Shown: positions 4,059 through 64,000 of the stretch, piece after piece
Position numbering within the stretch: the stretch's first letter is position 1
Layout: each line of letters opens with the position of its first letter
Origin: Octopus sinensis
Taxonomy: Eukaryota
DNA length: 64,000 nt
NCBI RefSeq assembly: GCF_006345805.1
Contig: NC_042998.1
Coordinates: 165,292,001 to 165,356,000, forward strand
Direction of reading: 5' to 3'
Notes under the pieces: generated by a model
Seen by the model: only the letters and a program-made list of their open reading frames with translations
What the model was told of the DNA's origin: nothing
Database searches by the model: none
Program-made: the position numbers and the translations under genes

Positions 4059-4302
4059 ATAAAATTAGGGAAGTTATTTCCAAATCCACAGGGGAGGGAA
4101 GTTCAATTTAGTGGTACTAAAATGAATTACTCACTGTATTATATACATATTTATAGATAGGTTTAAGAGACAGAACCACCCTCAAGCAACTCAATCATCA
4201 TTGAACGACATTATTCACGATAGGTACATATAGGACTAAATATTAAAATTATCAAAATTTATGCCTTTAATTCTTATTCTAGATCATATATTTTTCATTA
4301 TA

Positions 4303-4408
4303 TAGACTACGTACGTTTCATGACAACATATTCCTCGATATTGCTGCATTAGAAGGTCTCAAATACAATACCATATTAAAACGATTATATCGCCAATCTT
4401 CAGGTCTA
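4303..4408 (-). ncRNA. Type I hammerhead ribozyme motif (Penelope-like pLTR) with enlarged stem II
   Basis: Minus strand: TAGAC-CTGAAGA-ttggc...gtcat-GAAAC-gtac-GTA-GTCTA; perfect 5-bp stem I, intact core, palindromic stem III. Confidence 0.8.
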
Positions 4409-4644
4409 GATTATATGAACTTATTTTGCTATTTACATTCTATATAAAGATATGACAAACTAAATTATCTAACTAGAAGTTGTCGGAATAATTTTACTTT
4501 CGCAAATAATGAACGAAAATGTGGAATAAGAATAGAAAAAAGAAATGTTAGTAAAAAGAAAATAATCCGACAACTTCTAATCATGTAATTTAGTTTGTCA
4601 TGTCTTTAGATAAGATGTAAATAACAAAATAAGTTCATATAATC

Positions 4645-4750
4645 TAGACCTGAAGATTGGCGATATAATTGTTTTAATATGGTATTGTATTTGAGACCTT
4701 CTAATTCAGCAATATCGAGGAATATGTTTTCATGAAATGTACGCAGTCTA
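4645..4750 (+). ncRNA. Mutated inverted copy of the hammerhead motif
   Basis: TAGAC-CTGAAGA...GAAAT-gtac-GCA-GTCTA; GAAAC>GAAAT and cleavage triplet GTA>GCA. Confidence 0.65.
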
Positions 4751-4901
4751 TATAAAGTAAAGTATATGATCTAGAATAAGAACTGAAGGTATTAATTTTG
4801 ATAATTTTAATATTTAGTCCTATATGTACCTATCGTGAATAATGTCGTTCAATAATGATTGAATTGCTTGATAGTGATTCTGTCTTTTAAACACACACAC
4901 A

Positions 4902-20409: not shown

Positions 20410-20710
20410 AGTGGCAAACCTGGCATAACCTTTCCTATGCCGGACAAAATACCTTTCATCTTTTCGGGGTCGATGAAGTAAGTGTCGGTTAAGTATGAGG
20501 GTCGAGGTAATCGAGTTTTCACGTTGGCAAATTGTTTAGCGGTATTTCATCCGTCTTCATGTTCTGAGTTCAAATTTCGACGAGGTCGACATTACCTTTC
20601 ATCTATCTTGGGTCGATGAAATAAGTACCAGTCAAGCACCGGGGTTGATGTAATTAACTAACTTCCTCCCTTAAAGTTTCAGACCTTATGCCTTTACCAG
20701 GAGGGATTAC
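20410..20710 (+). mobile_element. SINE family A, partial plus full copy (tail B)
   Basis: GAGTTCAAAT B box, core GGGTCGATGAAATAAGTACCAGT, tail AGTTTCAGACCTTATGCCTTT. Confidence 0.75.
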
Positions 20711-21820: not shown

Positions 21821-22190
21821 ATAATAGTTATCGCCATACTAATATGGCATTCTTATAAAAATAAGAAAAAAGCTGTCCGCTTATTAGCTCCATGAGGCCA
21901 TCGCCTTAAGTTAGCTATTTGATACACAAACTGTATCCATATAACCTTCGAACAAGGGAGGTCAGTCGCTCCACACTACTTGACCGGCAGCTACAGACGC
22001 GTTTCGGAGTATTGCCCCTTTTCAATGCAGCGTAGTGTGGAGCGACTGACCTCCCTTGTTCGAAGGTTATATGGATACAGTTTGTGTATCAAATAGCTAA
22101 CTTAAGGCGATGGCCTCATGGAGCTAATAAGCGGACAGCTTTTTTCTTATTTTTATAAGAATGCCATATTAGTATGGCGATAACTATTAT
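21821..22190. repeat. Apparently perfect 159-bp inverted repeat (21821-21979 / 22032-22190) with 52-bp spacer
   Basis: Arms read as exact reverse complements; right arm abuts (TA)n. Confidence 0.95.
21990..22031 (-). ncRNA. Minimal hammerhead motif with degenerate core in the palindrome spacer
   Basis: Minus: GCTGCA-TTGAAAA-GGGG caata CTCC-GAAAC-gc-GTC-TGTAGC; all three stems present, CTGAAGA mutated to TTGAAAA. Confidence 0.65.
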
Positions 22191-24027: not shown

Positions 24028-25051
24028 ATCTAGAATGACTTTACCTATTTCTGTTTCAAAAGATTAAACAACCAAATCTACAATAAAATAACGATATTTG
24101 CTGCTTTAAAGTGAAATAATTGAGAAGGTATTTAAAGTTTCTGTAGGTATTTAAAGTTTCTTTTGGTGGAATATTTTAAAAAGTATCCACGGCCTTGGTT
24201 ACTGAAAACTAAAAACCTATTTCTACTGACTAAAGCAATATTTTACTATTATACACACACCCTCGCATACATATACTCACTAACCTGTGAGCGCTTTTCG
24301 ACCGATATCAAACGTATATGTTTCTGTGATTGCTTAGTAAATCACACCATGGAAATTCTGTTTAGCACATTATCCTCCAGTATTTGAATGGTCTTTAATT
24401 TTCTCAAATGTGAGGATACAAATAATATTTTATGGTTTTCGTGTGACTACATATACATATACATACCACAGCCTAAACAGAAATACGAAGACCTGCCATT
24501 TGTTTGGAACATACGTGAAAGACCGATGCAATGTCGGCTCATCTTGTACATTATCGATTCAAATAAACACCGTGTAATATTTTCGAGGCCATAGCGACAC
24601 ACATGAATACTTTTTAATATTTTTTTCTAAAATTAAGACGAGTAATAAATAAAATATAAAAAGAAATTAGCTGAACAACACAGATTTCTTCGACAATCCA
24701 CTACAACCGCTAACTCACATCACAATGTTTCCTCAGTTTTCCTTTTCTATTATACTGAACTTATTGTCTGTATATACAGCTAACAGGTAGATAAATATAA
24801 TATTTGAGCAAGAATGGAGAGCAAGGCGGCGAGCTGTCAGAAACGTTAGCACGCCGGGCGAAATACATAGCGGTATTTCAGCTGCCGCACATGTGTTCGT
24901 GAAGTAAGAATTGCTGTTTCGTGGTGTTAATATTGTTAACAACTGTTGTTTCTTGTTAAACTGTTGAATAACTTAACTGTTGGAGTTTTCAATTGAAAAC
25001 ACTTAGTGCTTGTGGTAGCACGCGTTGTTCATTCCCCCTTTGGGGGGAAGA

Positions 25052-26582
25052 ATGTCGTCTAGCATGGAGCCTACCGTTGGAGCAGAAATACTTGTTTCTC
25101 CTGTTGAGAGGAGGAAATACATGTCCGGCGAGGAGCCAACTACAGACAAGGAAATAGGGGTTTCCCCCGCTACAAGAAGGAATAGCAGAGAGGATAATAT
25201 ATTTGATATTTTTGGAGATGTGTCTGAGAGCTCGTCAGAACTTTCACCAGAAGAGTTTCCGACTTTGCCAGAGAACAAAGGCATTGTGTCGAAGAGAATA
25301 ATTGATGTGCCTAGCATCCAGATAGAACCAAAAAATGGAAAAAAAAAGTTTTGCGTTGGCTGCTGGGGGTGGAACCCAGATACTGTCGACGAATAAAAGC
25401 GAAATTATGAAATACAGCAAAATGATGGAAATAAATGACAACAGTGTGAAAATTGAACCTCCGCAAAAGTTATTACAGGAAGAAAAGCAAAAAACAATAA
25501 TTTTCAAAACATATTGTCTACAAATTAGAAAAATTGAAAGAATGTCAGAAGAGAAAATAGAAAAGTGCTTAAAGCCAATATTGGGCGACGTAGTATTTCT
25601 GAGAAGAGGAAAAAAATTCGGAACGGTGGAAGTAAGGTTCACCAATAAAGAAATAGCACACAAGAACTCAGTGGAAACGTTGAAAACGAACGACGTGGAG
25701 TTAATACCCTATTATATGGGGATGAGGACGTCGCGAATAAAAATTACAAGGGTCCCGCCAGAGGTCGAACCTATGTGGTTGTTGGCGGCAGTCCTAATCA
25801 AAGAGGTAGAAAAAATTACTCTCCTCCAGGCTACCGCTACGGAAAACCCACGCTGGGATGGTAAAACAATTAATCTTCTCATTCAAGCGGACCCTAAAAT
25901 AATTCAAACAATTCCTGAAACAATTGAGGTAGGGGAGGAGAACCTCGTGGTGTTTGTTGAGGGCCGAAAACCTCGATGTTTTTTATGTGGTCAATTAGGC
26001 CACATTCGAAGGAACTGCAAGGAAAATGAAGAAGAGGAGGAAGAGGAGAAAAAAGACAAAGAGGAAGAAGATAAAGAAGAAACAGATGAGAAAAAAACAA
26101 CAAACAAAAGAAAAATACAACCAGCAACCCAGCCGAGAGCGGCGACTACTACAGAACAACGACCAAAAAAGACTGCCAGAAGAGAAAAAGAAGAAAAAGG
26201 CATAATAGCCGTATACACTAAAGATACTGAGCTCATGAGAGACATTCAACTCATAAAGACTGTAAAAAAAATTGATAACCTTTCAGAGGAATTTATCAAT
26301 TACGACATATATGAAGTCTCAAATAAGACTTATAGAATTCTACAAAATAAGTACAGAAAGACTGTATCTTCATTGAGATTAGATTTTAACAAGTCGATAT
26401 TTCATGGATTACCAGCTCCGATCCCGCGAGAAAAGGAAAAGGTGGAGATTCCCCCTCCACCTGATAATTCTGTGTCGGTGGTGAGACGGGATTTTGACAA
26501 ATCTATTCCCAAGACCGTCCACCTCCGACCCTGGATAAAAAAAAATGTGGAGGGTCCCCCTCCACCGGACAATCCTGATTAA
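25052..26582 (+). pseudogene. Tx1 ORF1 (gag-like, CCHC knuckle), one frameshift in the A9 run at 25339-25347
   Basis: ORFs 25025-25396 and 25335-26582 join; CFLCGQLGHIRRNC knuckle; RRM-like FGTVEVRF. Confidence 0.85.
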
Positions 26583-26593
26583 ACAGGTAAGTG

Positions 26594-29500
26594 ATGGCTA
26601 TTCACATTGGTTGTTTAAATGTTCATGGCCTGTTGTCAAGCTGGAAGCAAGGACGCTTTCTGAATGACATCAGGTCGAGAAATTTGGATGTAATTGTTGC
26701 AACGGAAACCCGGGTGAAGGGGCCAAGAGATCTGCTCCCCCTCCTGAACGGCTACGAGAAATACGTTCTCCGAGTCGGGCGGGAGGTGGGGGTGGGTGTT
26801 GGTCCTACTAAAAAGAAACCGGGTAGCCGAGAAAAAGTTGGTTTTTTCTGACCCAGAAGGCAGGCTGGTCGTTCTCGACTTGACATTCAGTTGTGGCAAG
26901 ACAATCAGGCTGGTCGCTATTTATGCACCAAACATTATTGGCCCGCAAACTGAATATTTTCGTGGCCTAGGAAAGTTCCTAGCCACGTCGCATTCACTAG
27001 TAGTGTTAGGAGACTCTAATACAATATGTGCAGCACACACAGATTGTGTTGGCTCAAACTCGAACATGAACAGAAAATGTAACACAGGCTTTCGGGATCT
27101 GCTAAGTCAATTTCAGCTAGCAGATCCATATAGGTTGGAGCACCCGAACACTCCACAGTGGACGTGGTCAAATAGTGACGGGTCTACCAGAACATATCTA
27201 GATAGGATTTTAATTAGAGAAAAAGATAAGTCCATAGTTGAGTGTCCACAGTTTTTTCTAGTCAGCTACAGTGACCACAAGATGGTTACCTGTAAACTGA
27301 CGGTAGATAAGTTGCATAGACAGGGATCTGGCTACTGGAAACTCAATACGTCCCTTTTGGCGATTGAGGAGTACAGAAAGCGGATCAAGATGTTAATACA
27401 GAGGGCATTAACAGGTACCATCATTAATAACAAATGGTGGTACGCCCTAAAAAGAGCCATCAAATATGAGTCTATTAGGTTTAGCATAAGTTTAGCTAAG
27501 AAGGGACGTAAAATAGGAGATGGTCTAGTTAAGGAACTAGAAGAAGCCTGGAGGACTGGTAATACAGACCAAGCGAGGGTGAAAAGACTGGAGTTAAACC
27601 AGCATCTTGAAGCCCACCACATGGGAAGTATTACCAGAGCTAAGTTACGTGCAATGGGAAGTGAAGGAATCAAAGCCGCTGGATGGGCCCGAGTGGTGGA
27701 AGCTCGGCAAGGAAATAGTTCCTCTATTCGGTCTTTGACGAATCAAAATGGTGTCTTGATAAACGAACCCGAGAAAATGTGTGAGGTCTTTCGGGAGTAC
27801 TTCGCCCAGCTGTTCGGGGGTGACGGCGGTCCTGGTGGTGGGAGAGCCCTCGAGGACTTTCTTACCGGGCTGCCGTGCCTCTCGGGGTCGGATGCGGAGT
27901 CTTGCGAAGGGCCAATCACACTTGAGGAGGTGATGGAGGCTTTGGCCGATTGTAAAGCGGGTAAGTCACCGGGACTTGATGGTCTTCCGTACGAGCTGTA
28001 TAAATGTATGCCAGACTTGTTCGGGCAACTACTGACTGACGTGTACGCGAACTGGAAACGGAATGGGTTTATCCCCAGATCTGTGCGCCGGGGAGTAGTG
28101 ACGTTGGTCAGAAAGGACCCGGACAAGGGGACGTTCTAGAGAATTTCAGGCCCATCACTCTGTTAAACGCAGAAGTGAAGATTTTGGCCAAGGTTCTAGC
28201 AAAAAGGTTGGCGCGTGTCGCGAATGGTATAGTCGGGGAGGCACAGACATGTGCCATCCCAGGCAGAACCATTCAGGATACCCTCCATCTTATTCGCTAT
28301 ACCATAGAGAGGTTTGGTAATAAATCTGGCAAAGGTGGGGCATTGGTGCATTTGGACCAGTCTAAAGCTTTTGATAGGGTTGACCATCGATACCTAGCGA
28401 CTGTACTTGCGCGGTTTGGCCTGGGCCTTGGCTTCCTCAGGTGGTTTATCGCTTTGTACCACAACATTGACTCGATAGTTCGGGTGAACGGTTTCCTTTC
28501 GAAGCCGTTCTGCATCAGACGCTCGGTTCGTCAAGGATGTCCGCTTTCACCACTTTTGTATGTGATGGCTCTCGAGCCATTACTGCAAAGGTTGAGTGGC
28601 ATCCCGAGAGAACCAGGACTAGAGGAGTTTGTTACGGCTTTCGCGGATGATATCACTATCAGTGTAACCACAGTGGTACGCCTACGTGAAGTAGGTAAGA
28701 CTATTGAGGCTTACGAGGAGGTAGCAGGAGCAAAGATTAACCGGGAAAAGTCGGTCGGCTTGCAGCTCGGCACCTGGGTTGGCAAGTCGATGCCTTCAGA
28801 CAGTGTTGTTAGGCGCTGGACGGAGGGACCGGTTAAGTTGCTGGGAGTCTGGTTTGGACCAGGCCTCCAGATAGAGAAGAACTGGACGGAGGTATTGAGC
28901 AGGGTGGCTGCAGTAGTCAAGACTTGGTCTTGGCGGTGGCTATCCCTGAAGGGAGGGCGGAAGTGGCCAATGTGTTTATCGCATCGGTCATTACCTACCG
29001 CCTGACTGTCGTGCCCTGTCCGGATTCGTGGTTGATCAGGTTGGAGAGACAGCTCTTTCGCTTTTTGTGGAAGGGCAGGTCGCCACTTGTGAAACGCTCT
29101 GTCTGCTGTCAAAAGCCTTTAAATGGAGGTTTAGGGATGCCTTGGTTAATGATGCGCAGACATGCGTTGAGGTTGAGGCACCTCTGGATTCTCCTGGATA
29201 GTGAACGGGTGTGGTCTCCGCTGGCCAGACAAATGTTCCTGAGTTCAAGAGTTTTTGCGAACAGGAAGCCTGGTGTTCTTGTAGACCGAGGTCGAGTGAG
29301 TGGCATAAAGAGTGCCGTAAGGCCCTCTTGCTGTTCCGGCGCTCGGGCAACGCCAGCGGTGGGGGTTCCACACGGATTTTATATAGTGGGTTGGTAGAGT
29401 CTGAATGCGACGATGGCCTGGGGTCGACTCTAGGTCTCGGATTTATTCAACTGGACAGCTTGTTTCATCGTACATTCGGGTTGAGAACGTTGGACAACTT

Positions 29501-29990
29501 CCAGAAGTCCTTAACCTGGCAATGCTACAGAGGTGCCTTGCCCGTTTGGGATAAGCTCGCAAGACATGGTAAACGTCAGTCGCCGACCTGTCCAAGATGC
29601 GGTGGGGACAAGGAAACCGTCCCTCACGCTATTGTTCAGTGTCCGGAGATAACTGAAATGTGGGCTTATGCTGAACATCTGTTGTCCGGCGAAGGAAGAG
29701 TACGGCTGTCGACTGAGTCAATTATAAAAATTGACCCACCGGGAGTTCTAACGAACGAAGGTAAGAATTGTTTTCTCACGGTTGTAGCAATAGCAAAAGA
29801 GGCTGTATGGAATACTAGGATAAAAGGAATTAAGACAGGCAACTTTATCTCTGGTGACAATTTACGATCCTTTTTTTCTTTTCATTTGAAAAGGAAACTG
29901 TGGCTGGAGAAGAGGTGTCTGTCAGAGTGTACGTTCCAAAAGAGATGGAAGTATGTTGCACGAGTGTTGTGCGTGCAAGGAACCGTGTGA
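26594..29990 (+). pseudogene. Tx1 ORF2 (APE endonuclease, RT, C-terminal Zn finger), four frameshifts
   Basis: LNVHGL, ATET, IYAPN, GDSN, YLDRIL, SDH; KSPGLDGLP, LDQSKAFDRVDH, RQGCPLSP, FADD; CPRC..H...C; shifts near 26780, 28130, 28955, 29237. Confidence 0.92.
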
Positions 29991-31033
29991 ATAGACGAGG
30001 AAAAAAAATAAAAAGGTATCAGCGGTAGATCGGGGCTTGTGGGATCGGAGCGTAACTTGATCATCGCTTCATTTGTATTGTTTTTGTACTGTGTATTCCA
30101 TTCGATTTTTATGTATTGTATTTTATTTTTGATGTCACATTTATGTAAAATCATATCGATTCACTGATCCCATCAGTTGTACTGTCCATATCTATGTTTG
30201 GCCCCCGGTGGGCAATAAAGAAATTGGTATTTCGTCCTCCGCTACATTCTGAGTTCAAATTCCGCCGAGGTCGACTTTGCCTTTCATCCTTTCGGGGTCG
30301 ATAAAATAAGTATCAGTTATGCACTGGGGGCGATATTATCGACTTAATCCGTTTGTCAATCCTTGTTTGTCTCCTCTTTGTGTAGCCCCTTGTGGTCAGT
30401 AAAGAAATAAGAATGGAAATTCTGAGGGACGATATTTTGTTTGACAGATTTGCTTGGAGAGAGACATTAGCGATATTATGAGAGATCGAACTTGCTAATA
30501 AGGGAGACAAGTCAGTCTGACGCAAGATTTAATTTTCATAACCCTCCAAATGACTTCAACAATTTTGTTGTAAGATTTTTACAAAGAATTATGATTTAGT
30601 CACAAACTCGAAGACTTGAGGCATTATTAGTTCAAGAAGAACTGTCAGTTAAAACAAAAGAAAAAAAAGAAAGAAAAACGTAAAACTTGCTTGAACCAGC
30701 GAATAGTACAATTAAGACGATGAGTAGCATACGCTAAGCTTTGACAGATTTGAACTAAAATATTTAGTTACAAAGATCTAGTTACAGCTTTGTTTTATTG
30801 TCTGTGGCTTTGGACCAAAGGGATTGTTAATTAGCAGCAATAGGAAGTAAGGTAACGACAAATCAACGCAGTTTTGGCATTTCAATTAAAAGGTTGTTTA
30901 AATTATATCTAAAAAAATGGATGAATAAATGATAAAAGAATATTGAAGTGGGAAAAGAGGAGATTGGTGGGAGAATAGTGAGGAAGAAGAATGAAAAATT
31001 ATGTGAAATGCTAAAAGGTACACACACACAAAC

Positions 31034-31599: not shown

Positions 31600-34500
31600 C
31601 GGCTGATATTGGCATTTCGCAGAACTCCTCATCCATGGTTGAGAGGCGTGGCATGCCACTAAGATAGGAGGTGAAATCCATCACCGTCCCAGAACCACCA
31701 CGCACCCATGCACTTCGGTGAAGTACCGCTGAAATTCCGCACACATCTGCTTAGACTCGGTTATCATGCACCCATCACAGATCGCCTAAGCCCGAAATGT
31801 TGCTTTGTTTCCACGCAGCGCCTCTGCATCCGGGCCCATAAAACGCTTTTGTCCCCTCCCATTTCAGTGCATACGCTTTAGTTCTAACAATGCAACCTCC
31901 GTGCTTGGCGTTGAAGAATTGATCAAGAGCCAATCTCGTCGCTAGCACGTCGGTCGCTGTGCTCTTCCTAAGCGCTTCTTCTAACGTCCTAACTTAGTCT
32001 CCCCCTCTCCTAGATTCCTCTAACGGTATTTCCTAACTAAAAACTACCGCCTCTAATCTAATAATCCTTTTCAGGGTTATCTACCATCTGCTTTTGACGA
32101 TCGCACTCGCCAAATTCCGATGCGCTAACTTGGTAACCCGGTCTCTGAAAGCTTGGGAAGGACGTGTTCATCTTCCAGTATCCGGGGCCCAGTCTATGGA
32201 TCCTATCTATGTCGACTGTACAAATCACAAATTTATGGTCCATATAGCCGACGACTTTGAAACATGGACAATTTATATTACTTCTATCTACAGGCCTACA
32301 AATTACTCTATCTTGATACGATCTGGAAGACCAGACGTGGTTCATTCATGTCCACATTGGCGCATTCGGAAAATCCAGTAAGTTCCTGTCATCCAACAGG
32401 AAGCGACTGAGCAGTTTTGTGAGGTTTTTACTCCTCCTCTCCTGTCAACTAACAATAAAGGGCGTGACGTCCCAAGGAAAACCTCCAAACATCTGGAGAA
32501 ATCTGGCTTCCCCACCCCCTTGGGGTCATAAACAGCGACTAGACTAAAGGCATCACCTTCACTGTCGCTCAGGCCCAGGACTTACCCTCCGGGTCCAGGA
32601 AGATCGTCCGAACTTCGAGAAACAGGCCTTTCCTAAACAGCATTGCTACCGCCTCCCATTCTGGGCCGACTAAGAGATGCGTAGAACACACAGTCGTCGA
32701 AAATGTGTGCAAGATCGCGTGTGTCGGAAAGCCTGGTCTCACTGGCTGCAATCAGATCCAAACCTAGCGACCTGAGGTCATTGAGCAAGCGACCTTGCTT
32801 CCAGGGCGACCTCAGGCCGCGAACATTTATGCAGCCTATTCTGAAAATCACCATGACGGCTCGAAAGGGTTGAAGAAAAGAGAAAAAGAGCGGGGTTACA
32901 TACCCTCCTGGATCTGGTAGTAGCCTGATAACCAGGGCTCTGGATCTGGTTCCTCTGGGAAACCGGCTAAAAGCCTGTTCGTGGCGCAGACGTTTGGCCT
33001 TTCTACGTCATGCTGGAAATCCCTCTGAATTTCTTTGTGTTTAGAGGTGTAGCCAAATTAGCATTAAGTGATCCGGAATGTTAAGGGTGCTGGTGTCGTA
33101 AATTGCACCTTCTGTCTGAATCTCCTTGTTACTGGCTATGGGAGCCAACAAATTTTTGTTGGCTCTCCTCATGAGCACATAATTCAATGTTTCCGTATTG
33201 ATGACTGTGAACTTTGTTTTGGGGTCTACATGTGGTTGTGAGTGTTTTGGTGGATTTGGTTGGGGTAGTGGTGATTTTGGTGCTGTTGTTGTTTTTGCCG
33301 TCTATGTCCTATGTGCAGGGGGTTTCAGTGCTTTCAGTGTTAGTGTAGGTTCGTCTTCTTTATCTTTTGTCTTAAGGTTTTTTTGCTTTTGCCTTGTAGC
33401 GTTTTTTCTCATCTTCCCTACTGGATGAAGAGGAAGTAGTGTCTGTAGGATTTGCCTCGGGGAGAATGACTGTGTTTGTGGCAGTATTAGCATGTTGGTG
33501 TGATTGTATGATTGAGAAAGAGGGCAAAGAAGGCTGGTTTGACAGATACTCTGAGTGGTTTCCTCCATCCAATGGGATTCACATGTTTCGGTTGTTGTTG
33601 GAGATGAAGCTACCGTTTTATTAAAATGTCTCTGTTGTTGCTGTTGCTATTGTTGAAAGTGCAATGTAGGTTGCAGGTCTAGCCACGTACTTCCCAAATT
33701 TTGGGGGTAAGAAGCTCTCAGGTGGCTTATGGTCCCAGAGAAGTCGCATCTGGGCTTCTTGTCTTCCACGACAACAAGCAATTCCCCCTTGTTGGGTAGC
33801 TGGATAAGGTCCGAGATTTTCTCGATATTTCCTGGTTTCACATGGATTAATATTTCCAAGTTGATCCCACAGCAGTTCTCCCTGCTGCTCCTTTTTACCT
33901 CCAGGAGTGATTCTGAGCCGTGCACCACACAGGTGACAATCCATCTGACGTTTGCTCCTGGTGGCACATCATTTACACTAATTCTGGTCGTCCAATTTCA
34001 GAAGTAGGAGGATGCAGGACCCACTCCTCAGTCCATCGGCGTGGCACTGCGTTTCTTTGCGAGAGGTCCTTACTTTTAAAGAAGAACTCAATGCTGGCAA
34101 ATTCCCCTCACTCCGTATATGGACCACATCTATTAAAGTTTCTCTGAGGGCCTTCTCAGCATGACTGATGGAGGCTATTTCAACTGGTCTACTTTTGCAG
34201 GATTCGCATCTGAAGTATACTGTCTTCTTTTTTGCCTCTATTATTTCGGTAGGTACGAACACTGCAGCCTTACCCCGCTCAGACTTAATGATGTCTTTCG
34301 CTTTTGAGAGTTCAGGAGTTTTGTCATCGAGTGCGATAGCAAACATTTCTCTCTTTGAGTTCACTACCTCAGCAAACCTTTTATTTTTGTTATTGTCTTT
34401 GTTGTTGTCGTCGTCGTTGCTGTTGTTATCGTTGTTGTTACTGCTGCTGCTGCTGTTCGTGGTGATGGAGTTGTGGCCACTTTCACCGTTATCGCTATTT

Positions 34501-35090
34501 CCCTCCACTCCGCCTTCAACTGTAGGATTATTTTTTCCGCTAAAATCCGTAGCAGTGTTAACGAAACTGCTGTCTCTGCGGTTATTGTCACTGCCACTGA
34601 TGCTGCTGCCCTTGCCGCTTCTCGCGTTGTAGTAGCTACCACTACTACTACTGTAGCTGCTGCCGCTGTTAGGGTCACAGCTACCACTACTGTTGTCAAT
34701 GTTGCCACTGGTGTACTTTGTACTTTTCTGCCTCCCTTTTTCCCCTCCTCTCCTGTATTGTGGCCTGTAATGGAGGGACAGGGAAGGGAAATCTTCAGCA
34801 GTCACTAGACCTGCGGGAGATATAGTTTTTTCTTAACTTTTTCAAGATGCGCCCCACTCATCTTGTTGAATTGTATATGATTAAACAACCACCGAACTTA
34901 CTTGGTGGGCAGAATATAGCCCCGTAAGGGGCCAAACAAACACAGAAACCCAGTGACAAGTTCTTGGTGTTTCTATTAACAACTTGGAACAAAATATAAA
35001 CCGAAAAAACGGCAGCAAACGGGTGTAAACAATTGTTTTCAAAAGAACTTACTTGGAGGGTTCAAAAACACGTCCGATGCACTCCGCAGC
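31600..35090 (-). mobile_element. 3'-truncated, decayed Tx1-clade element (element 2): 5'UTR, ORF1, APE domain and tether
   Basis: IGCINVRGLRSPWKQGRLLNDLRS (32633-32854), LDPEGK, YMDHK, GPGYWKMNTS, CEMPISAE; ORF1 pieces VVVEDKKPRC; homologous to element 1. Confidence 0.88.
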
Positions 35091-35102
35091 AAATACAATA
35101 AA

Positions 35103-35148
<46 letters not shown>

Positions 35149-35150
35149 TA

Positions 35151-35352
35151 ACCCTTTTAACCAAAAGAATAAGACCTGAAATTTGGTGGGAGGGGACTAG
35201 TCGATTACATCGACCCCAATGTTTAACTGGTACTTAATTTATTGATTTGGAAAGGATGAAAGGTAAAGTCGACCACAGCGGAATTTGAACTCAGAACTAA
35301 TGGCCGCTAAGCATTTTGCCTAGAGTGCTAAGGATTCTGCCAGCTCGTAGCC

Positions 35353-35387
<35 letters not shown>

Positions 35388-35794
35388 CCTTCCTATCATA
35401 GGCACAAGACCTGAAATTTGGAGGTAGAGGTTAAATCGATTATATCAACCCCGAAAGGAAGTAAGGCAAAGTTGACTTCGGCGGAATTTGAACCCAGAAC
35501 GTGTAGACAGACGAAATACCGCTAGGCATTTCGCCCGGCATGCTAACGACTCTGCCAGCTCACCGACTTATAATAATAATAACCCCTTCTACTAAAGGCA
35601 CAAAGCCTGAAATTTTGAGGAGGGGACTAATCGATTACATCGACTCCGGTATTTCACTGGTACTTAATTTTTCGACCCAGAAAGGATGAAAAGTAAAGTC
35701 GACGTCGGCGGAATTTGAACTTAGAACGTCGTGACGGGCGAATTACCGCTCAGCATTTCGTCCGGCGCGCTAACGATTCTGTCAGTTCACCGCC

Positions 35795-35829
<35 letters not shown>

Positions 35830-36040
35830 CTTTTCATTTAAAGGTACAAGGCCTGAAATGTGTGGGAGAGGCCTGAAATGTGTGGGTTGATTGCATCAAC
35901 CGCAGTGAATCACTGGTACTCAAAGGATGAAATTCAAAGTTGAACTTATCGGTATTTGGACTCAGAACAAATTTGAACTCAGAACAAAAGGCCGCCAAGC
36001 ACTTTGCCCGGTGTGCTAACGATTTTGCCAGTTCGCCGCC

Positions 36041-36042
<2 letters not shown>
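35151..36042 (-). mobile_element. Head-to-tail array of four SINE family A copies (tail B) separated by (AAT)n
   Basis: Copies at ~35151-35354, 35387-35570, 35583-35796, 35829-36042. Confidence 0.88.
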
Positions 36043-39944: not shown

Positions 39945-41944
39945 TTTAACAGGAAAACTTAAACAAATATATGTTTATCGCCAGCTGGTTATAGATGACA
40001 TCTGCACCCGATATATATATTGCAAGCATGGGAGCGAACCCCTACCATTCTCTACAGACGACAGAAGATTTTCTAACTAGAGACTTTGCTTAAACAAATA
40101 GAAATATCTAGAAAAAGAAAAAGCGGTTCTGTAGATTGAAAACAGAAAAAAATTCTCTAATAATAGTTGCCTTACAAATTTTTTTTTAAATGCACCGGTA
40201 AATACAAAGCAAAAATTACCTGAGCTACACATATATACAAAATAGAGAAAATAACATTACTAGGCACTGTACACGTGTTGCATAGAGTATTTTCAATACA
40301 GCAGAATTCAGAACGACTGAAAAAAATACTGCACGTACCCAAGGCACACAGAGATGCACTCGATAGTGCTGTGAAAGCATGCAATTAAAAAATACTGCTG
40401 AAAAATAATATTAATGATCCGGAATTGGTCAATTAGTTCTTAATTATTTGGCCGTCTCATTCAATTGATTATAGAGTTATTTTTTGTTCAATCATCAAAA
40501 AATCCTACAAAGAAAAAATACATAAATGTATATTTGATAAAAAGAAATAATAAAGCATAAATAAATGCTTTGGATACTTAAGAGTTGGCGGAAGGGTGAC
40601 AGAGAAAACGGAATGCTTTAGTTGAATAGAAAAGGTTTCTGGGAGGAATGTGGCTAGTCAGTGAGTTGGGGGGAAAGTTTGCAAATGGAAAGAAACAGGT
40701 TAGAATCATTAGAAACAGCACGCAAAAGAGAAAGGAAATAAAGTGTAGATTGAAGGAAATAAGTTATTTTCTCTATTTTGTATGTACTTGTAGCTCAGGT
40801 AATTTTTGTTTTGTATTTACCAGTTTTACTGGTAGTTCTGTTTAATGTTTGATGTGATTGGGTTAATGTTTATCTCATTGTACCATACAGAAAACATAGA
40901 AATAAAATAGATAGTAAGAGGATGAAGAGAGAGAAGAGGACATAGAAGGAATTGAAGGCGATAGAAATGTTTACAAACAAGGAAGATGTGTGCGTGCGTG
41001 TATATGTGTGTGAGAGAGAGAGAGAGAAAGCGGGGTGAGGGGATTGTGTATGAAAATAAGAATAATATCGAACGGAATGATGACTGGAAATATAGGATGG
41101 ATATAATGTATAGGGTCATTCAGAAGGGATTTCCCTTGCTTTGTCATAGGTTTTGAACAGAGCCCTTCCTATCTAGATTAACAAGGAAATTAAACATTGT
41201 TAACAGAATGACGAATAGAATAAGGAAGATCGTGCCTACAATAAAGTATTGAATAATAGATAAGGATAAGAAATAGAATGAATGAGTCAATATAATTCTG
41301 GGTAAAATAACGTAACTACTTCAATAAATATATGAGAAAGGTTATACAAGAAGGATTTGGAGTTATAGAATTAATGGAATTAGATTCTAGCTGTATTCTA
41401 TTTTTTCCCTAATCTTTTATAAGTTTCATTCAATGAAATAAGGTCCTGCTGGGACATCGCCTTCAGAGAGTTTTGCCGATTGTAGCAACTTAAATACTTT
41501 TTTTTAAAGGGATATAATCGAGGTGAATCTGAATACGACACTGTGTTTTGGTCGTCGCTGTGCCATTTCCGCTACCACTGAGAGCATTAACAATGGAAAA
41601 GGAAAGAAACACTGACATTAACAAGGTAAGACTCCATGTATAATGTAGACCTACATGTTTCATCTGAAGATATATTTTCTAAATGAAAAAACAAGAATAG
41701 TGGACTTCATTGGTTTCATGAAACTTGCTGTGGATCAACAAAGCTTAAATAAGGATTATTGCTAGATAACTTAGGTGACGTCATGAATTGCAGCTCAACA
41801 AAATTGTTATCAATCAATATCACACTACATACTCTTTACAATCAGCTCACAATGACCACCAAATAACATAATACAACCCACACAACAAAATCTCCACACA
41901 ATCATCACCCAATCAACACCATCATCACCCAATCAACACCACAC

Positions 41945-45753: not shown

Positions 45754-45843
45754 TATAGATAACCTTAAAAATTATAAAATTAAGGAAATATATTCCAATT
45801 TGAAATTGGGAAGCAAACTGTAAACTAGTATTGAAACCGTTCA

Positions 45844-46077
45844 TAAGGCGGCGAGCTGGTAGAAACGTTAGCACACCGGGCGAAATGCTTTGCGGTATTT
45901 CGTCGGTCGTTACGTTCTGAGTTTAAATTCTGCCGAGGTCGACTTTGCCTTTCATCCTTTCGGGGTCGATAAATTAAGTACCAGTTACGCACTGGGGTTG
46001 ATGTAATCGACTTAATCCGCTTGTCTGTTCTTGTTTGTCCCCTCTGTGTTTAGCCCCTTGTGGGTAGTAAAGAAATA
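45844..46077 (+). mobile_element. Near-consensus SINE family A (Tx1-type tail A) with 15-bp TSD
   Basis: Full head/core/tail; TSD AGTATTGAAACCGTT (45827-45841) / AGTATTGAAATCGTT (46078-46092). Confidence 0.92.
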
Positions 46078-46092
46078 AGTATTGAAATCGTT

Positions 46093-47682
46093 GTTTCTTT
46101 CTTTATTGCCCACAAGAGGCCCACACAGAAGGGACAACATAAAATAAAATTAAACGTATAATAAGATGAATGATAACATGAAAATGATAATGAAAATGTG
46201 CTGCTTGCACCACCTCAAGCAGCATCACTTCCTTGGTAATCCTTTTACTACATATACAACACATTCCTCTAATAGTTGTTCATACCCTATGCTGTCTGGT
46301 ATCCTTTTAGCGTCTGTATTGATTTTCCAGAACTTATAACCTTTTTTTCTATTTCCTCACTTCTTCTATCTGCTTTTCTGAAACTAGCACACACATGTGC
46401 CACCCTATTGTGTTCGTATATCCTTTTGTATCGACAAATTTTGCCGTCTTCCAATCTGTTACTTTCCGAATTAGTTCCTTATTCTCTTTGTTCGTCAATA
46501 TACAAACGTAATTTACTTCGCGGGGAGGGGAATTCTTTGTACTTTGTTGTAATTGCATTTCTTTTTGGATTGAGTAGGGGGGATGTATGTGGGTTCGGTG
46601 TTTGTGGGGAGAGGGTGGGTCTGAGATTGTATGGGTGGGGTGGGTAAGGTTTGGGGTTCCAAATCACTCTGTCCTTTCTTCCTCTTTTTCCTTCTTTCTT
46701 CTGAAATTATCCATGCTTCCTCTCTTTCCTTTTCCTCTTCTTGCTTCTTTTCCGGCCTCACGTCCATCCTTTCTGAAGTCTGCTTCTGCAGAAGACAGTG
46801 TGCTTTAATGTGGCTTTCTTGGCCACATTTAAAACACTGAGGAGTCCTGCCCTCCACCCACACTTTCAACACTACACCTCCGACTGATACCGCTTCCACC
46901 AAACAATCCAGTGCTTCCACCGCGGCCTGCACAACCAGATCCACTGCTTAGAGCTTCCAAATCAAGCCCACCGCCCATGTGACCTGGAGGATGGCCACTT
47001 TCTCCCCACCTCCCAGAAGAACAGCCGATGCGACCCAAGCCACATCTACCTCCGGTGGTACTCCCTCTACCCCAATCATGGAAGTCCCTCTTCCAAACAA
47101 GTGGGTAGAAGGACTATCTTGCCCGATTTTACCGTGTCCATAGCGAGCTCCCCTGCCCTAACCTCCGTCCTGAAATGGACTACAATAGCTCCGAATTCAC
47201 CTCCTCCGGTCAGTTACGCTATGTCCCACCAGACCGAGCACAACGCCCTTTCCATAATTTCAGCTTCTACATGTTCCACCTTCCCCTCCTCCACCGAGTA
47301 CACCCTGTATACCACAGTCTTCCAGTCCACTATCTTCTGTGGCGGTGACAGCTCAACGTCACTACCCACTCCACATACCACCTCCTCACATCCTTCAACA
47401 TTTGAAAGGACTACCTCCCCTTTGCCCACCTCTGTAGAACTTCCCCTCCCCAGGCACCTATCTATCCCATCGACAGCGAGTACCAGCTCCTCCTCCGAAG
47501 ACGACAACTCGGAACCACCAAGGTCCGATCAAAACATCCTTTTTGCCATGGCTATCTTTCGAAAAAATCGAGAGAAAGCACAAGAAAACCGCTGCAAAGC
47601 AGCACAAAACAACCAACAATTCAAACAGCAGCAACTCCAAACAACAATCAAACCTCAGCCCACCAGAATGCTCGACGAAATT
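46093..47682 (-). mobile_element. ORF1-only Tx1-derived non-autonomous element (element 3), frameshifted
   Basis: PPQKIVDWKTVVYRVY, VWVEGRTPQCFKCGQESHIKAHC; 3' end GGCCTCTTGTGGGCAATAAAGAAAGAAAC; 23-bp repeat TGTAAACTAGTATTGAAACCGTT at 45819-45841 and 47683-47705; no ORF2 sequence. Confidence 0.85.
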
Positions 47683-48153
47683 TGTAAACTAGTATTGAAA
47701 CCGTTATTGCATGTATGGAGAGACACGGCGTTTTTATTATGAGTGGGCTGCAATATGTAAATGAAGTAATAAATTATTGACATTCGAGAATCTCATGGTA
47801 ATTGTTAATCTGTGATTGTTTCTTTAATATGTAAATTAATGACTTTGCTGTCGAAAATCTTATTATTATATTTCATATTAAATATCATATTATTTAAATT
47901 CTATGATATCATTGATTAAGAAAAATTTATTGTTTGAGGCAAGTTCATTAATTGTGGACATTATAATGAGAGAAATTCATACATTTCAAACTTGTTTTTT
48001 TTTATCACTGCATACACATAGATTTTCCATATGAGCACATTTGATTACATCAGTAGGATACAATCAAAATATTTTGAAGCACTCATTCTCAGGACAAAAA
48101 TATAATATATTATCCTTAATACAGCTGCAACAAAAGCTATATTGCAACCACTC

Positions 48154-48497
48154 AAGGCGGCGAGCTGGCAGAAACGTTAGCACGTCGGGCGAAATACTTA
48201 GCAGTATTTCGTCTGCAGTTACGTTGTGAGTTCTTGTTTGTCCCCTCTATGTTTAGCCCCTTGTGGGTAATAAAGAAATAAGAAACGTTAGCACGCCGGG
48301 TGAAATGCGTGGCCGTATTTCGTCTGCCGTTACGTTCTGAGTTCAAATTCTGCCGAGGTCAACTTTGCCTTTCATCTTTTCGGGGTCGATAAATTAAGTA
48401 CCAGTTGCGCACTGGGGTCGATGTAATTGACTTAATCCGTTTGTCTGTCCTTGTTTGTCCTCTCTGTGTTTAACCCCTTGTGGGTAGTAAAGAAATA
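48154..48497 (+). mobile_element. Dimeric/nested SINE family A (two tail A ends) with 17-bp TSD
   Basis: TSD TATATTGCAACCACTCA on both sides; internally deleted first unit ends AAAGAAATA at 48280, second unit restarts at AGAAACGTTAGC. Confidence 0.88.
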
Positions 48498-53779: not shown

Positions 53780-54185
53780 TGTCCTCTTTTTGTTACCACT
53801 TTAACCCTCCGAAAATCCCTAATTTTATTTAATTTGCTTTGCGGGAATGACTGTTTTGACGAAACGCATATTGTCCCGACGTTCTAAATGAGGAGCATAT
53901 ATGGGTACATGGCGTAAAACAAAACGTGAACAACATGAAAAACGGGAACATGAAAAAACAAAAACATGGAAAATGAACTTTTTTTCGAACAAAGAAAGAA
54001 ACAAATAGAGAAACGAGACAGGTAGCATAAAGAACAAACCCTTCATCAGTTGTCCCCTGTTTTATCTAATCTGCATTTCAGACGATAGGACAACATGCGT
54101 CTTCGTCAAAACAGTCGTTCCCGCAAAGCAAATTAAATAAAATTTGGGATTTGCAGAGGTTTAAAGTGGTAACAAAAACAGGACA
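53780..54185. repeat. ~115-bp inverted repeat (53780-53895 / 54071-54185), PLE-like, with degenerate hammerhead 54057-54114 (minus)
   Basis: TTTATTTAATTTGCTTTGCGGGAA vs TTCCCGCAAAGCAAATTAAATAAA; minus TTGACGA-AGACG..CGTCT-GAAA. Confidence 0.8.
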
Positions 54186-57752: not shown

Positions 57753-57844
57753 TGTGTATGTGTATACGTATACGTATATGCATATGTAGGTGTATGTATG
57801 TATACATATATGTATATGTATGTGTATACATGTAAAGCCATAAA

Positions 57845-58305
57845 ACTGCCGCTAAGCATTTTCCCAGTGCAGTTACGATTCTGCAGCATCGTCGCCTTAA
57901 GAATAAAAATAATAATCCTTCCTACTGGAAGAACAAGGCCTAAAATTTGGAGGAAGGTATTACATCGACACTAGTGCGTAAATTGTACTTATTTAATCGA
58001 CCCCGAAAGGATGAAAGGCAAAGTAGACCCCGGCGGAATTTGAACGTAGCGGCAGACGAAATGCCTCTAAGGATTTCGCCCGGTGTCTTAACGATTTTCC
58101 CAGCTCGCCGCCTTAATAATAATAATGGTTTTAAATATTGGCACAAGGCCAGCAATTTCGGAAGCAGAGATAAGTCGATTACAAGCGCAAAAGAATGAAA
58201 GGCATCGTTTTCAGTGGAATTTGAAAACAAAACGTAAAGACAAATGAAATGTTGCTGAGCATTTCTCCTGGCGTGCTAACGATTCTGCCAGTTCGCAGTC
58301 TTAAT
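57845..58305 (-). mobile_element. Tandem SINE family A copies (tail B and tail C) separated by (AAT)n
   Basis: Heads ending near 57899, 58114, 58302, each followed by AAT repeats. Confidence 0.8.
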
Positions 58306-60092
58306 AATAATAATGATAATAATGATTATATTTATTATTATAGCATCACAATTTTTGCCGACTACCTGTATACTATAAACCAATAAAGGCTTAGGTGGGT
58401 CTACACAACGACAACACAAAAATGTATCAATGTGGAAATTATTTGGCTGTTCTCCTAGTTTCCAAACCCATTGTCTAGATTAATATATTAATGAAACTTA
58501 CTTTTAACACTGCTTTTAGCTCCAGTTCAGATCTATGATAAAAAAATATTTCAGCCATAGTCATCCCGTCATTTATTCAGACATAATATTGCTAAGACTA
58601 CAATATTGAGTACCTTCAAATGTATTAAGGACTACATGATATGTGGTTTGTGCAAGTTTAAGCTGCTATTTCTAGCAGAAGTAGTATCCAGCTAGAGAAT
58701 CCTTCTTTGAAATCGTTGTTGTAATATTGTTCTTGTTACTTCGCCTCAGATCATCCCTGTATATTGTTAAATACTTTCCAACTGTGATTGGATCAAGCAT
58801 ATTTTGAAGACTATATCCTCCTACATCTTTTTCCTTGATCAAGACAGCAGAGTATGCGGTTTTAGAGAAGTCTAACTGCTAATTCTAGACGATTGAGTAG
58901 GCAATTTCAAACTTCTTTGGTGTATATTTATATTTATTAGAAGATATGGTGTTCAAGCCTTTCTAAATGACATTAGATGTGTTTTTAACGTAAAAATCAT
59001 TGCAAATTAAAATTGGAGAACCAATTTTCGGAATACATACTCTTACAGTACAGAGTAAAAAAAAATAACTGTACAGCGATAAAAAAATTATGATAAAGCA
59101 GAAAAGCAAAACAACATAAATGGCAACAATGTTTCCATTGAAAGTTAACAACAGCATCAACAATACATTCTCAGCAACGGCTGCGAAAAGCATGGAGCGA
59201 TTTAAGATGGATATACTGCAGAAGGACAAACAAGTACAGCAGCAACAACGCCCTGTCTGTCTCTCTAGCTCTCTCTCTCTTTCTCTCTCTCTCTTTCTCT
59301 CTCCCTCTCTCTCTCCGTATATATTTATATCTCTCTCACTCCTGGTGGCAATCCAAAGAAAAATCAATAGAACCTGTATGTGGCATCACAACCTGGAAGA
59401 AAGGGCTGCCAGATCTGCTTCGAATGATACTCAATCATCTTTGAAACGTTTTGACCCCAGATAAAAAGTACTCGAGAAAATGATGGAACATATATAGCTT
59501 ATTTTTATATCTTTTAGGATAATGTCTAGTACTCACTACAAGACATCTGATACTGAGAGTAGGGAAGCAGGAAAATGATCTCAAACTGGAAACCTGGCTC
59601 CGATGCCTTTATTAGACCCTTCCACTTGAGTTACTTGAAGGCCAGTGGTATTGGCCGGGTGACGGAGTAATCAATCACTCATCCAGGCCAGGCCAGGCCA
59701 GGCCAAGGTTTGAGCACAACTAGCAAGAAACCAGAATAATTACTGCAATGCACTTATCCAAATCTTTAAACGATTCTACTTGTCCACGGCTCTAGAATAG
59801 TAACATAGAAGGATGAAGAGCAAATTTAACCTTATCAGGTGCAAGGAATCAGAATAAATACCCACATCATAATGACCCTGTTAATTCACCGCCCTGAATG
59901 CTACCTTTTCTGACTGTACGAATTTGCGTCTAAATAACAACAGTAGCAGTAGCAAGAACAACGACGACGACACCAGATTGAGTCAAAAGGGTTTTTAAAT
60001 TTTCACTCATGATCTTTGGCAAGTTGTATCTCCATGTTAATGTTATACAACTTTTCAAATCGTTGCTGAATTGTTCATTCTTTATTTTGATA

Positions 60093-63799: not shown

Positions 63800-64000
63800 T
63801 TCTTCTATAGGCATAAGGTCTGAAGTTTTGGGAAAGGGGATAAGTCGATTACATCCACTCCAGTGCATAACTGGTACTTATTTAATCGACCTCAAAATGA
63901 TGAAAGACAAAGTGGACCTCGGCATGATTTGAACTCAGAATATAAAGACGGACGAGATACCAATTTCTTTACTACCCACAAGGGGCTAAACACAGAGGGA
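63800..64000 (-). mobile_element. SINE family A (tail B) interrupted by an element with Tx1-type tail A that runs off the window
   Basis: Minus: ..GCCCCTTGTGGGTAGTAAAGAAATT|GGTATCTCGTC..GAGTTCAAATC.. Confidence 0.8.

Follow-up and report, generated by a model that had tools for sequence, protein, structure and literature searches.

Recurrent junctions at one position of a tRNA-type SINE suggest a loose insertion hotspot for an octopus LINE and its tail-sharing SINE

In a 64-kb window of octopus DNA (the whole stretch analysed, 64,000 nucleotides), an L1/Tx1-type LINE lacking poly(A) and a SINE with the same kind of 3' tail each abut position 50 in other copies of the SINE, and the joint recurs in contigs of four public sequencing runs. 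On balance, we think it probable that the LINE machinery favours this site but also uses others.

Results

The window is rich in microsatellites and carries one tRNA-type SINE family, whose 33 nhmmer matches cover 6.5% of its length. The copies have a head and body in common (positions 1–175) and differ in their tails, one of which, tail A, terminates in CCCCTTGTGGGYARTAAAGAAAT. A full-length copy with tail A at 45845–46077 (plus strand) served as the reference, with position 17 at 45861 and position 50 at 45894. The family shows traits of tRNA-derived SINEs, namely A- and B-box-like motifs (judged by eye against the usual consensus), dispersed copies and target duplications; ARAGORN and Rfam returned no match for a source tRNA. 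We also noted several other repeat arrangements. Head-to-tail arrays of three to four SINE copies with other tail types and (TTA)n between them lie at 35130–36042 and 57820–58310 (minus strand); the tails in these arrays seem to use TTA microsatellites, and matching joints back to the SINE start occur in the run contigs. At 20452–20700, a fragment of the SINE body (104–169) is followed directly by another unit from position 35, which is another tandem form. Long inverted repeats at 4161–4892, 21821–22190, 53780–54185 and 40194–40824 (334 bases at 91%, 159 at 100%, 98 and 62, respectively) are probably MITE-like or foldback elements.

Element 1 (24880–30225, plus strand) is a full-length, frameshifted L1/Tx1-type LINE of ~5.3 kb without poly(A), and it splits a host SINE at position 50, between the two promoter boxes. 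The 5' part of the host (24823–24879, plus strand; positions 1–57) contains the A-box-like TGTCAGAAACGTT, is 89% identical over 57 bases by blastn and is followed by nhmmer to position 66. The 3' part (30226–30409, plus strand) runs from position 50 to 233 through the B-box-like GAGTTCAAATTCC into tail A, and is 87.5% identical to the copy at 45894–46077. The 3' junction (30214–30245) reads AATAAAGAAATT followed directly by GGTATTTCGTCC and onward. As the preliminary description had stated, the insertion lies between the A and B boxes with an 8-bp target duplication: GGTATTTC is found exactly at 24872–24879 and again at 30226–30233, where it opens the 3' part of the host (both on the plus strand). 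The split host is flanked by a duplication of its own, AAGAATGGA (24810–24818 and 30409–30417, plus strand). SINE likeness to the left of element 1 extends to ~24890 (CTGCCG in register; 7/9, P ~0.002); the duplication may span 17–20 bases with four differences, or the LINE 5' end may resemble the target. Two other origins of the junction were tried and ruled out: GGTATTTC is not the LINE's own end, as five of the seven tail-A ends in the window are without it, nor is the junction a product of slippage, as the tail end has no homology to the bases preceding position 50.

The coding regions of element 1 are those of an L1/Tx1-type LINE, with a CCHC motif in ORF1 and with APE endonuclease, reverse transcriptase and a C-terminal zinc motif in ORF2, alongside the target-site duplication. 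The ORF1 region (25019–26582, plus strand) occupies two frames and holds the CCHC zinc knuckle (PF00098, E 6.7e-5). The ORF2 region (26590–29990, plus strand), identified with PF03372 (APE endonuclease), PF00078 (reverse transcriptase, E 6e-30), PF13966 (zf-RVT) and tblastn, is spread over several frames, with breaks near 26750, 28130, 28950 and 29240. Its best solved-structure match is human L1 ORF2 (E 1.7e-6), to which the catalytic region aligns. Among named sequences, the LINE protein is closest to proteins of Argonauta hians (61%), Octopus sinensis (54%) and cuttlefish; no match listed in the homolog searches was named Tx1, the named ones being uncharacterised proteins of cephalopods and fish. 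On the basis of its architecture, element 1 is provisionally placed in the Tx1 clade rather than in another L1 branch.

Element 1 ends in tail A (30178–30225, plus strand), which contains a small hairpin and AATAAA at 30214 and terminates in AAAGAAATT. LINE and SINE have 34–41 bases of this tail in common (p 2e-4). Element 1 agrees with the SINE tail in 28 of 34 tail bases, and the tail of element 3, a LINE remnant described below, aligns to it with a still higher score, 45 (each p 2e-4, 5000 shuffles); all three pairings among element 1, element 3 and the SINE scored above 5000 of 5000 shuffles. A 4-pair hairpin in the tail is retained across LINE and SINE despite several single changes and a double one. 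A structured 3' tail in common, the mark of a stringent SINE/LINE pair, is thus present, and L1-clade tails are rarely found on SINEs (PMC3747384). Given the common tail and the established knowledge of LINE/SINE tail sharing (PMC3747384), the SINE is likely moved by the LINE group of element 1. The earlier proposal that the SINE is the LINE's passenger is in this respect supported (28/34, p 2e-4), with mobilisation itself argued by analogy. All seven tail-A ends in the window, LINE and SINE tails counted together, are without poly(A). Outside the window, the tail-A pattern gave no loci in metagenome contigs and genome contigs, the SINE body pattern gave none in viral contigs, and a protein-profile scan of metagenome contigs gave 38 pattern matches, none of which was confirmed.

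A second position-50 junction lies at 63970–63950 (minus strand), where AAAGAAATT abuts GGTATCTCGTCC. Here a second tail A (63962–64000, minus strand; 39 bases inside the window) runs to the window end, and the host SINE (63800–63961, minus strand) continues from position 50 and ends in a different tail type. The equivalent junction claimed at 63950–63970 is therefore real, but its tail is SINE-type: bases 63999–63963 (minus strand) are identical to the SINE tail at 46040–46076 at 37 of 37 positions, whereas the LINE tail matches this same SINE tail at 28 of 34. The 5' end and the duplication of the second insert lie beyond the 64,000-nt window.

Of the seven tail-A ends, two are at position 50, one is at SINE position 17, three are in non-SINE DNA and one belongs to the LINE remnant, element 3. 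The four further junctions quoted in the preliminary description are all present (AGAATGG after 30409, AGTATTG after 46077, AGAAACG at 48281 and TATATTG after 48497), and the three in non-SINE DNA (AGAATGG, AGTATTG, TATATTG) are loosely alike. AGAAACG at 48281, however, is not unique DNA; it is SINE position 17, in the A-box region, of another copy. It belongs to a composite SINE (48154–48497, plus strand) made of head 1–79, tail A and, after the junction at 48280/48281, SINE again from position 17, with an outer 17-base duplication TATATTGCAACCACTCA. We noted that the tail between the two units is 57 bases long, that the whole composite lies within this one duplication, and that the position-17 site recurs in contigs. 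Element 3 (46093–47682, minus strand; 23-base duplication at 45819–45841 and 47683–47705) is internally deleted, has tail A and lies outside any SINE. Its tail at 46098 (minus strand) abuts AACGATTTC in non-SINE DNA, which does not fit RGTATT, the loose preference suggested in the preliminary description. A related LINE, element 2 (31620–35090, minus strand; 79% over 81 bases at the ORF2 start), is without its 3' part; TGTATTT does precede it (35097–35091, minus strand), although with no 3' end in the window this is not a proven target.

Some further features of these elements are recorded here as observations. The reference SINE at 45845 lies inside the 23-base duplication of element 3 (45819–47705) on the opposite strand, forming a tail-to-tail pair. 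The SINE has a separate 15-base duplication, AGTATTGAAACCGTT, whose end coincides exactly with the tail junction of element 3; the pair could reflect successive insertions or one double-primed event. The LINE 5' ends at 24872, 35097 (minus strand) and 47682 (minus strand) begin with or follow ATTT(C) (GGTATTTCAGCTGCCG, TGTATTTGCTGCGG and AATTTCGTCGAGC), and alignment of the three gave nothing significant (p 0.15–0.5). Element 3 opens with eight bases equal to SINE positions 53–60, as if its donor had once been at position 50.

Next, we considered how often such a coincidence would arise by chance. The junction pattern occurs twice in the window against 0.01 expected from shuffling, a null that ignores that both halves are repeats. 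Under uniform insertion, at least two of seven tails at position 50 has P 4e-7; against short-motif nulls, P is 0.054 (RGTATT), 0.025 (RGWATT) or 0.004 (RGWAT). Relative to a short motif, the window data alone are marginal, and these P values are weak because the window was chosen for the pattern. SINE position 50 accounts for 6 of the 14 GGTATYTC sites in the window, 6 of 76 RGTATT[ACT] sites and ~6 of 164 NGTATT[ACT] sites, the latter two giving an expectation of 4–8%. With regard to Kojima's threshold for a target-specific Tx1 family (>20% of family flanks), two of the seven tails in this selected window and one of the two LINE tails are at position 50. As to Kojima's second mark of such a family, 5'-truncated copies in the target as a sign of independent insertions, the material comprises one full-length LINE with both junctions and an ambiguous left joint (45901>46048). 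Use of the site is not near-exclusive, as it would be for a stringent element such as Tx1L or R1Bm, given that five of seven tails are elsewhere and that position 17 is a second hotspot.

To extend the comparison beyond the window, contigs of four public runs (X3, X5, X14 and X1, of 24 listed; four studies and three organism labels, one of them possibly the source) were compared with the SINE at 45835–46090 (likeness 80), giving 15 of 656 joint rows, 12 of 621 rows of a between-letter table and 24 of 1557 rows of a loose-end table. Of these 15 of 656 joints, five have the tail end as their starting point, and each of them leads back into the SINE in sense. The tail is joined to position 50 in at least 39, 33, 20 and 5 contigs of X3, X5, X14 and X1, and to position 17 in at least 16, 5, 5 and 1, respectively; these counts pool LINE and SINE tails, come from a selection of rows, and are not additive since runs share loci. 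The position-50 rows are 46077>45894, 46077>45896, 46083>45910 and 46083>45915. Rows starting at 46083 were treated as the same junction as those starting at 46077, because the reference flank AGTATT absorbs GGTATT and private variants at 45905–45909 break the alignment. The position-50 junction therefore recurs in exact register in four of four runs, and no tail-to-SINE joint other than those to positions 50 and 17 was found among the 15 of 656. The 12 of 621 between-letter rows include one joint from the tail to 45961, its two sides being separated by 12 foreign letters. The between-side letters have lengths of 10, 10, 13, 3 and 2, exactly those required for position 50, and they differ from one another, hence the hosts are diverse. 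Joint contigs in X3 have mean depths of 50–77 against 22–61 in seven of eight listed contigs; as this is near ordinary, most are low-copy loci. Higher depths (807 in X3, 420 and 480 in X1) mark certain junction variants as multi-copy, so later amplification does occur. Contig depth also dips at position 50, but this is confounded by private variants of the reference SINE and was not counted as evidence.

An excess was estimated for X14. There, 394 contigs leave the reference after the tail plus xGTATT, and their consensus equals window positions 48320–48349 (SINE positions 56–85) with an agreement of 0.46. In simulations, this agreement requires an estimated 27–35% of the contigs in this class to continue as SINE, if agreement is assumed to be the mean majority-letter share and with contigs, not reads, as the unit; at the expected 4–8%, agreement would be 0.37 and only 13–16 of 30 letters would be recovered. 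The 4–8% derives from this window (6.5% family cover); SINEs of all families together occupy 11.6% of O. vulgaris (PMC13282606), a density that could double this expectation, and even then the excess would be ~2-fold. Hits at position 50 thus appear to exceed what SINE density and a short motif predict (an estimated 27–35% against 4–8%, X14 contigs), contrary to the refuting condition named in the preliminary description. An 8-base motif (GGTATYTC) would erase this excess, and the line between a longer motif and a site preference would then be blurred. Moreover, contigs both collapse and inflate repeats, counts were dropped in three runs, and the figures are not shares of all tail ends.

The 5' side of the insertions was less conspicuous. 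No joints from positions 57–71 back to the SINE start were found among the 15 of 656, though a plain full-length insertion with duplication predicts them. A left joint, 45901>46048, was present in one contig of each of three runs and ends exactly at GGTATTTC as in element 1, although it could instead be an internal deletion. Separately, opposite-strand joints 45843/45844>45910 connect the SINE start to ~position 66 in 13, 8, 2 and 0 contigs; these backward SINEs near ~position 66 could be the 5' side of insertions by TTA-seeking tails or of insertions into an antisense motif site (position 87, GGAATTTG/AGAATTTG). None of the 15 of 656 joints fell at that antisense site itself, where private reference variants lower sensitivity. 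In sense, positions 17 and 50 are the only RGWAW sites in the head and body of the reference SINE.

Discussion

The preliminary description proposed that the LINE targets its own passenger SINE. Recurrence at one SINE base speaks for this; strict specificity does not hold, since five of seven tails and one of two LINE tails are elsewhere and position 17 is used as well. Most of what was seen outside the window, moreover, bears on the common tail and not on the LINE as such. A loose hotspot is probably the better account, and we favour repeated insertion, for most loci tentatively, on the strength of the diverse between-side letters, the differing host tails and element 1 itself. In a possible mechanism, the APE endonuclease would nick a short motif of the RGWAT kind, which has sense examples in the SINE head and body at positions 17 and 50 only, and an additional factor would lift position 50 several-fold above this motif. 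As that factor we infer pairing between read-through RNA and the primer. AATAAA sits six bases upstream of the end of element 1, T4 is absent within two of three SINE copies checked, and the host SINE is without a T4 stop; together with the lack of poly(A), this makes it likely that the RNAs run into the flank of the donor. RNA from copies at position 50 would then extend into GGUAUUUC, which is complementary to the nicked primer strand in any other SINE copy and might pair with it. When a SINE enters a SINE, homology might let the new cDNA connect to the host head, which would yield a full SINE and a headless second unit with no visible 5' junction. The missing 5' joints would be expected in that case, and equally if dimers were amplified or arose by template jumping.

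Alternatively, the junction may have arisen a few times and then spread as a unit, either because dimeric SINE transcripts were copied or because the reverse transcriptase jumped from a SINE RNA fragment starting at the position-50 loop to another tail; L1 ORF2p does yield template-jump concatemers in vitro (PMC10830420). Besides the missing 5' go-back joints (none among the 15 of 656), the multi-copy junction variants and the SINE transcripts without a T4 stop are consistent with such a course. Both window junctions, moreover, carry TT where three other SINE tails carry TA, and position 50 sits at the loop edge of a 10–12-pair hairpin in three of four folded copies, although SINE heads fold no better than shuffles (z 0.4 to -1.3). 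Against it, TA and TT forms both occur in the contigs, the window hosts differ in their tails and the between-side letters are diverse, tails in non-SINE DNA are followed by comparable motifs (AGTATTG, AGAATGG, TATATTG), and element 1 is a 5.3-kb LINE with the host head upstream and a duplication. We regard this origin as rather unlikely overall.

Less likely still would be a short RGWAT-like endonuclease motif combined with SINE abundance only, position 50 being then the commonest instance of the motif. The marginal window statistics (P 0.025–0.054) are compatible with this, as is the fact that positions 17 and 50 are both motif sites, and an 8-base motif would explain everything (6 of 14 GGTATYTC sites are position 50). 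The endonuclease hairpin region of element 1 aligns gap-free to human L1, and a loop of L1 length, shorter than the 11 residues of the site-specific Tx1L/TRAS1 (PMC1950540), fits a relaxed enzyme, as far as the alignment indicates. For 6-base motifs, however, the estimated 27–35% against 4–8% is too high, and none of the 15 of 656 joints involves the antisense site at position 87 (with the reduced sensitivity there). That same loop argues against the opposite extreme, a strictly sequence-specific Tx1 family that has come to use the passenger SINE as its safe harbour. In its favour, targets of this kind are frequent among Tx1 families (PMC4494074), the exact base recurs and element 1 occupies it; yet five of seven tails including that of element 3 are elsewhere, a second hotspot exists, and roughly two thirds of the X14 contigs in the xGTATT class continue into something other than SINE, which renders strict specificity very improbable.

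Returning to the loose hotspot, its nearest parallel is found in Alu, which has a hotspot for insertion into itself at position 133 (Levy, Schwartz and Ast, PMC2836564); there too, a SINE enters family members at a single nucleotide and in sense orientation by means of its LINE's machinery. That hotspot was attributed to suboptimal nick sites and RNA-primer pairing (PMC2836564). In Alu, poly(A) pairs with the A-rich linker (PMC2836564), whereas the octopus elements lack poly(A) and their site falls between the promoter boxes of the tRNA-like head; unlike in Alu, the octopus LINE itself is found in the site and has a stringent-type tail in common with the SINE. The crocodilian Tx1-Mar LINEs and SINEU in Mariner-N4_AMi (Kojima 2015, PMC4494074) are similar in that a Tx1-clade LINE and its SINE have a site preference in common, directed at two places within an abundant transposon and ranging from 13% to 90% (PMC4494074). 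Their target, however, is an unrelated DNA transposon, documented with phylogeny and genome-wide rates, while the octopus target is the passenger SINE, seen in one window and contigs. Tx1L in Tx1D of Xenopus (PMC1950540, PMC4494074) is a further APE-type LINE whose insertions into a second mobile element fall on a fixed base, but with a stringent endonuclease and an 11-residue hairpin loop in place of a loose preference and an L1-length loop (PMC1950540). For pairing by read-through RNA, R1Bm and SART1Bm provide a model, as downstream target-like RNA ends aid their priming (PMC7265360); they are of the R1 clade, with rDNA or telomere targets and experimental support, whereas in octopus the pairing is proposed from sequence features.

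In the 2026 repeat annotation of O. vulgaris (PMC13282606), SINEs make up 11.6% and 13 recently active L1-Tx1 families account for 421 insertions; the available part of that text contained no target analysis for L1-Tx1. The available parts of PMC8967140, PMC4758252, PMC4824008, PMC8869645 and PMC9599045 held nothing on a position-50 SINE site, and the open-access literature (Repbase reports and subscription papers being outside its scope) yielded no report of a LINE preferring the head or promoter region of its own passenger SINE. Compared with known targeting of SINEs and transposons, self-targeting of a tail-sharing passenger SINE would thus be a particular twist that we did not find in print.

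If the preference is real, it would account for the tandem SINE units, and false dimer families could mislead repeat annotation. It would also allow target specificity to be observed at an early, loose stage, and octopus would offer a very large natural data set in which enzyme specificity can be separated from RNA-guided priming. A further step, which we consider unlikely, is a feedback loop in which the SINE serves as landing site for itself and its mobiliser, each SINE insertion creates a new site, and read-through RNA of position-50 donors steers the next insertion. Were this loop to exist, targeting would be inherited from the location of the donor and not from the enzyme alone, and every insertion of the LINE would also interrupt a parasite copy within its promoter.
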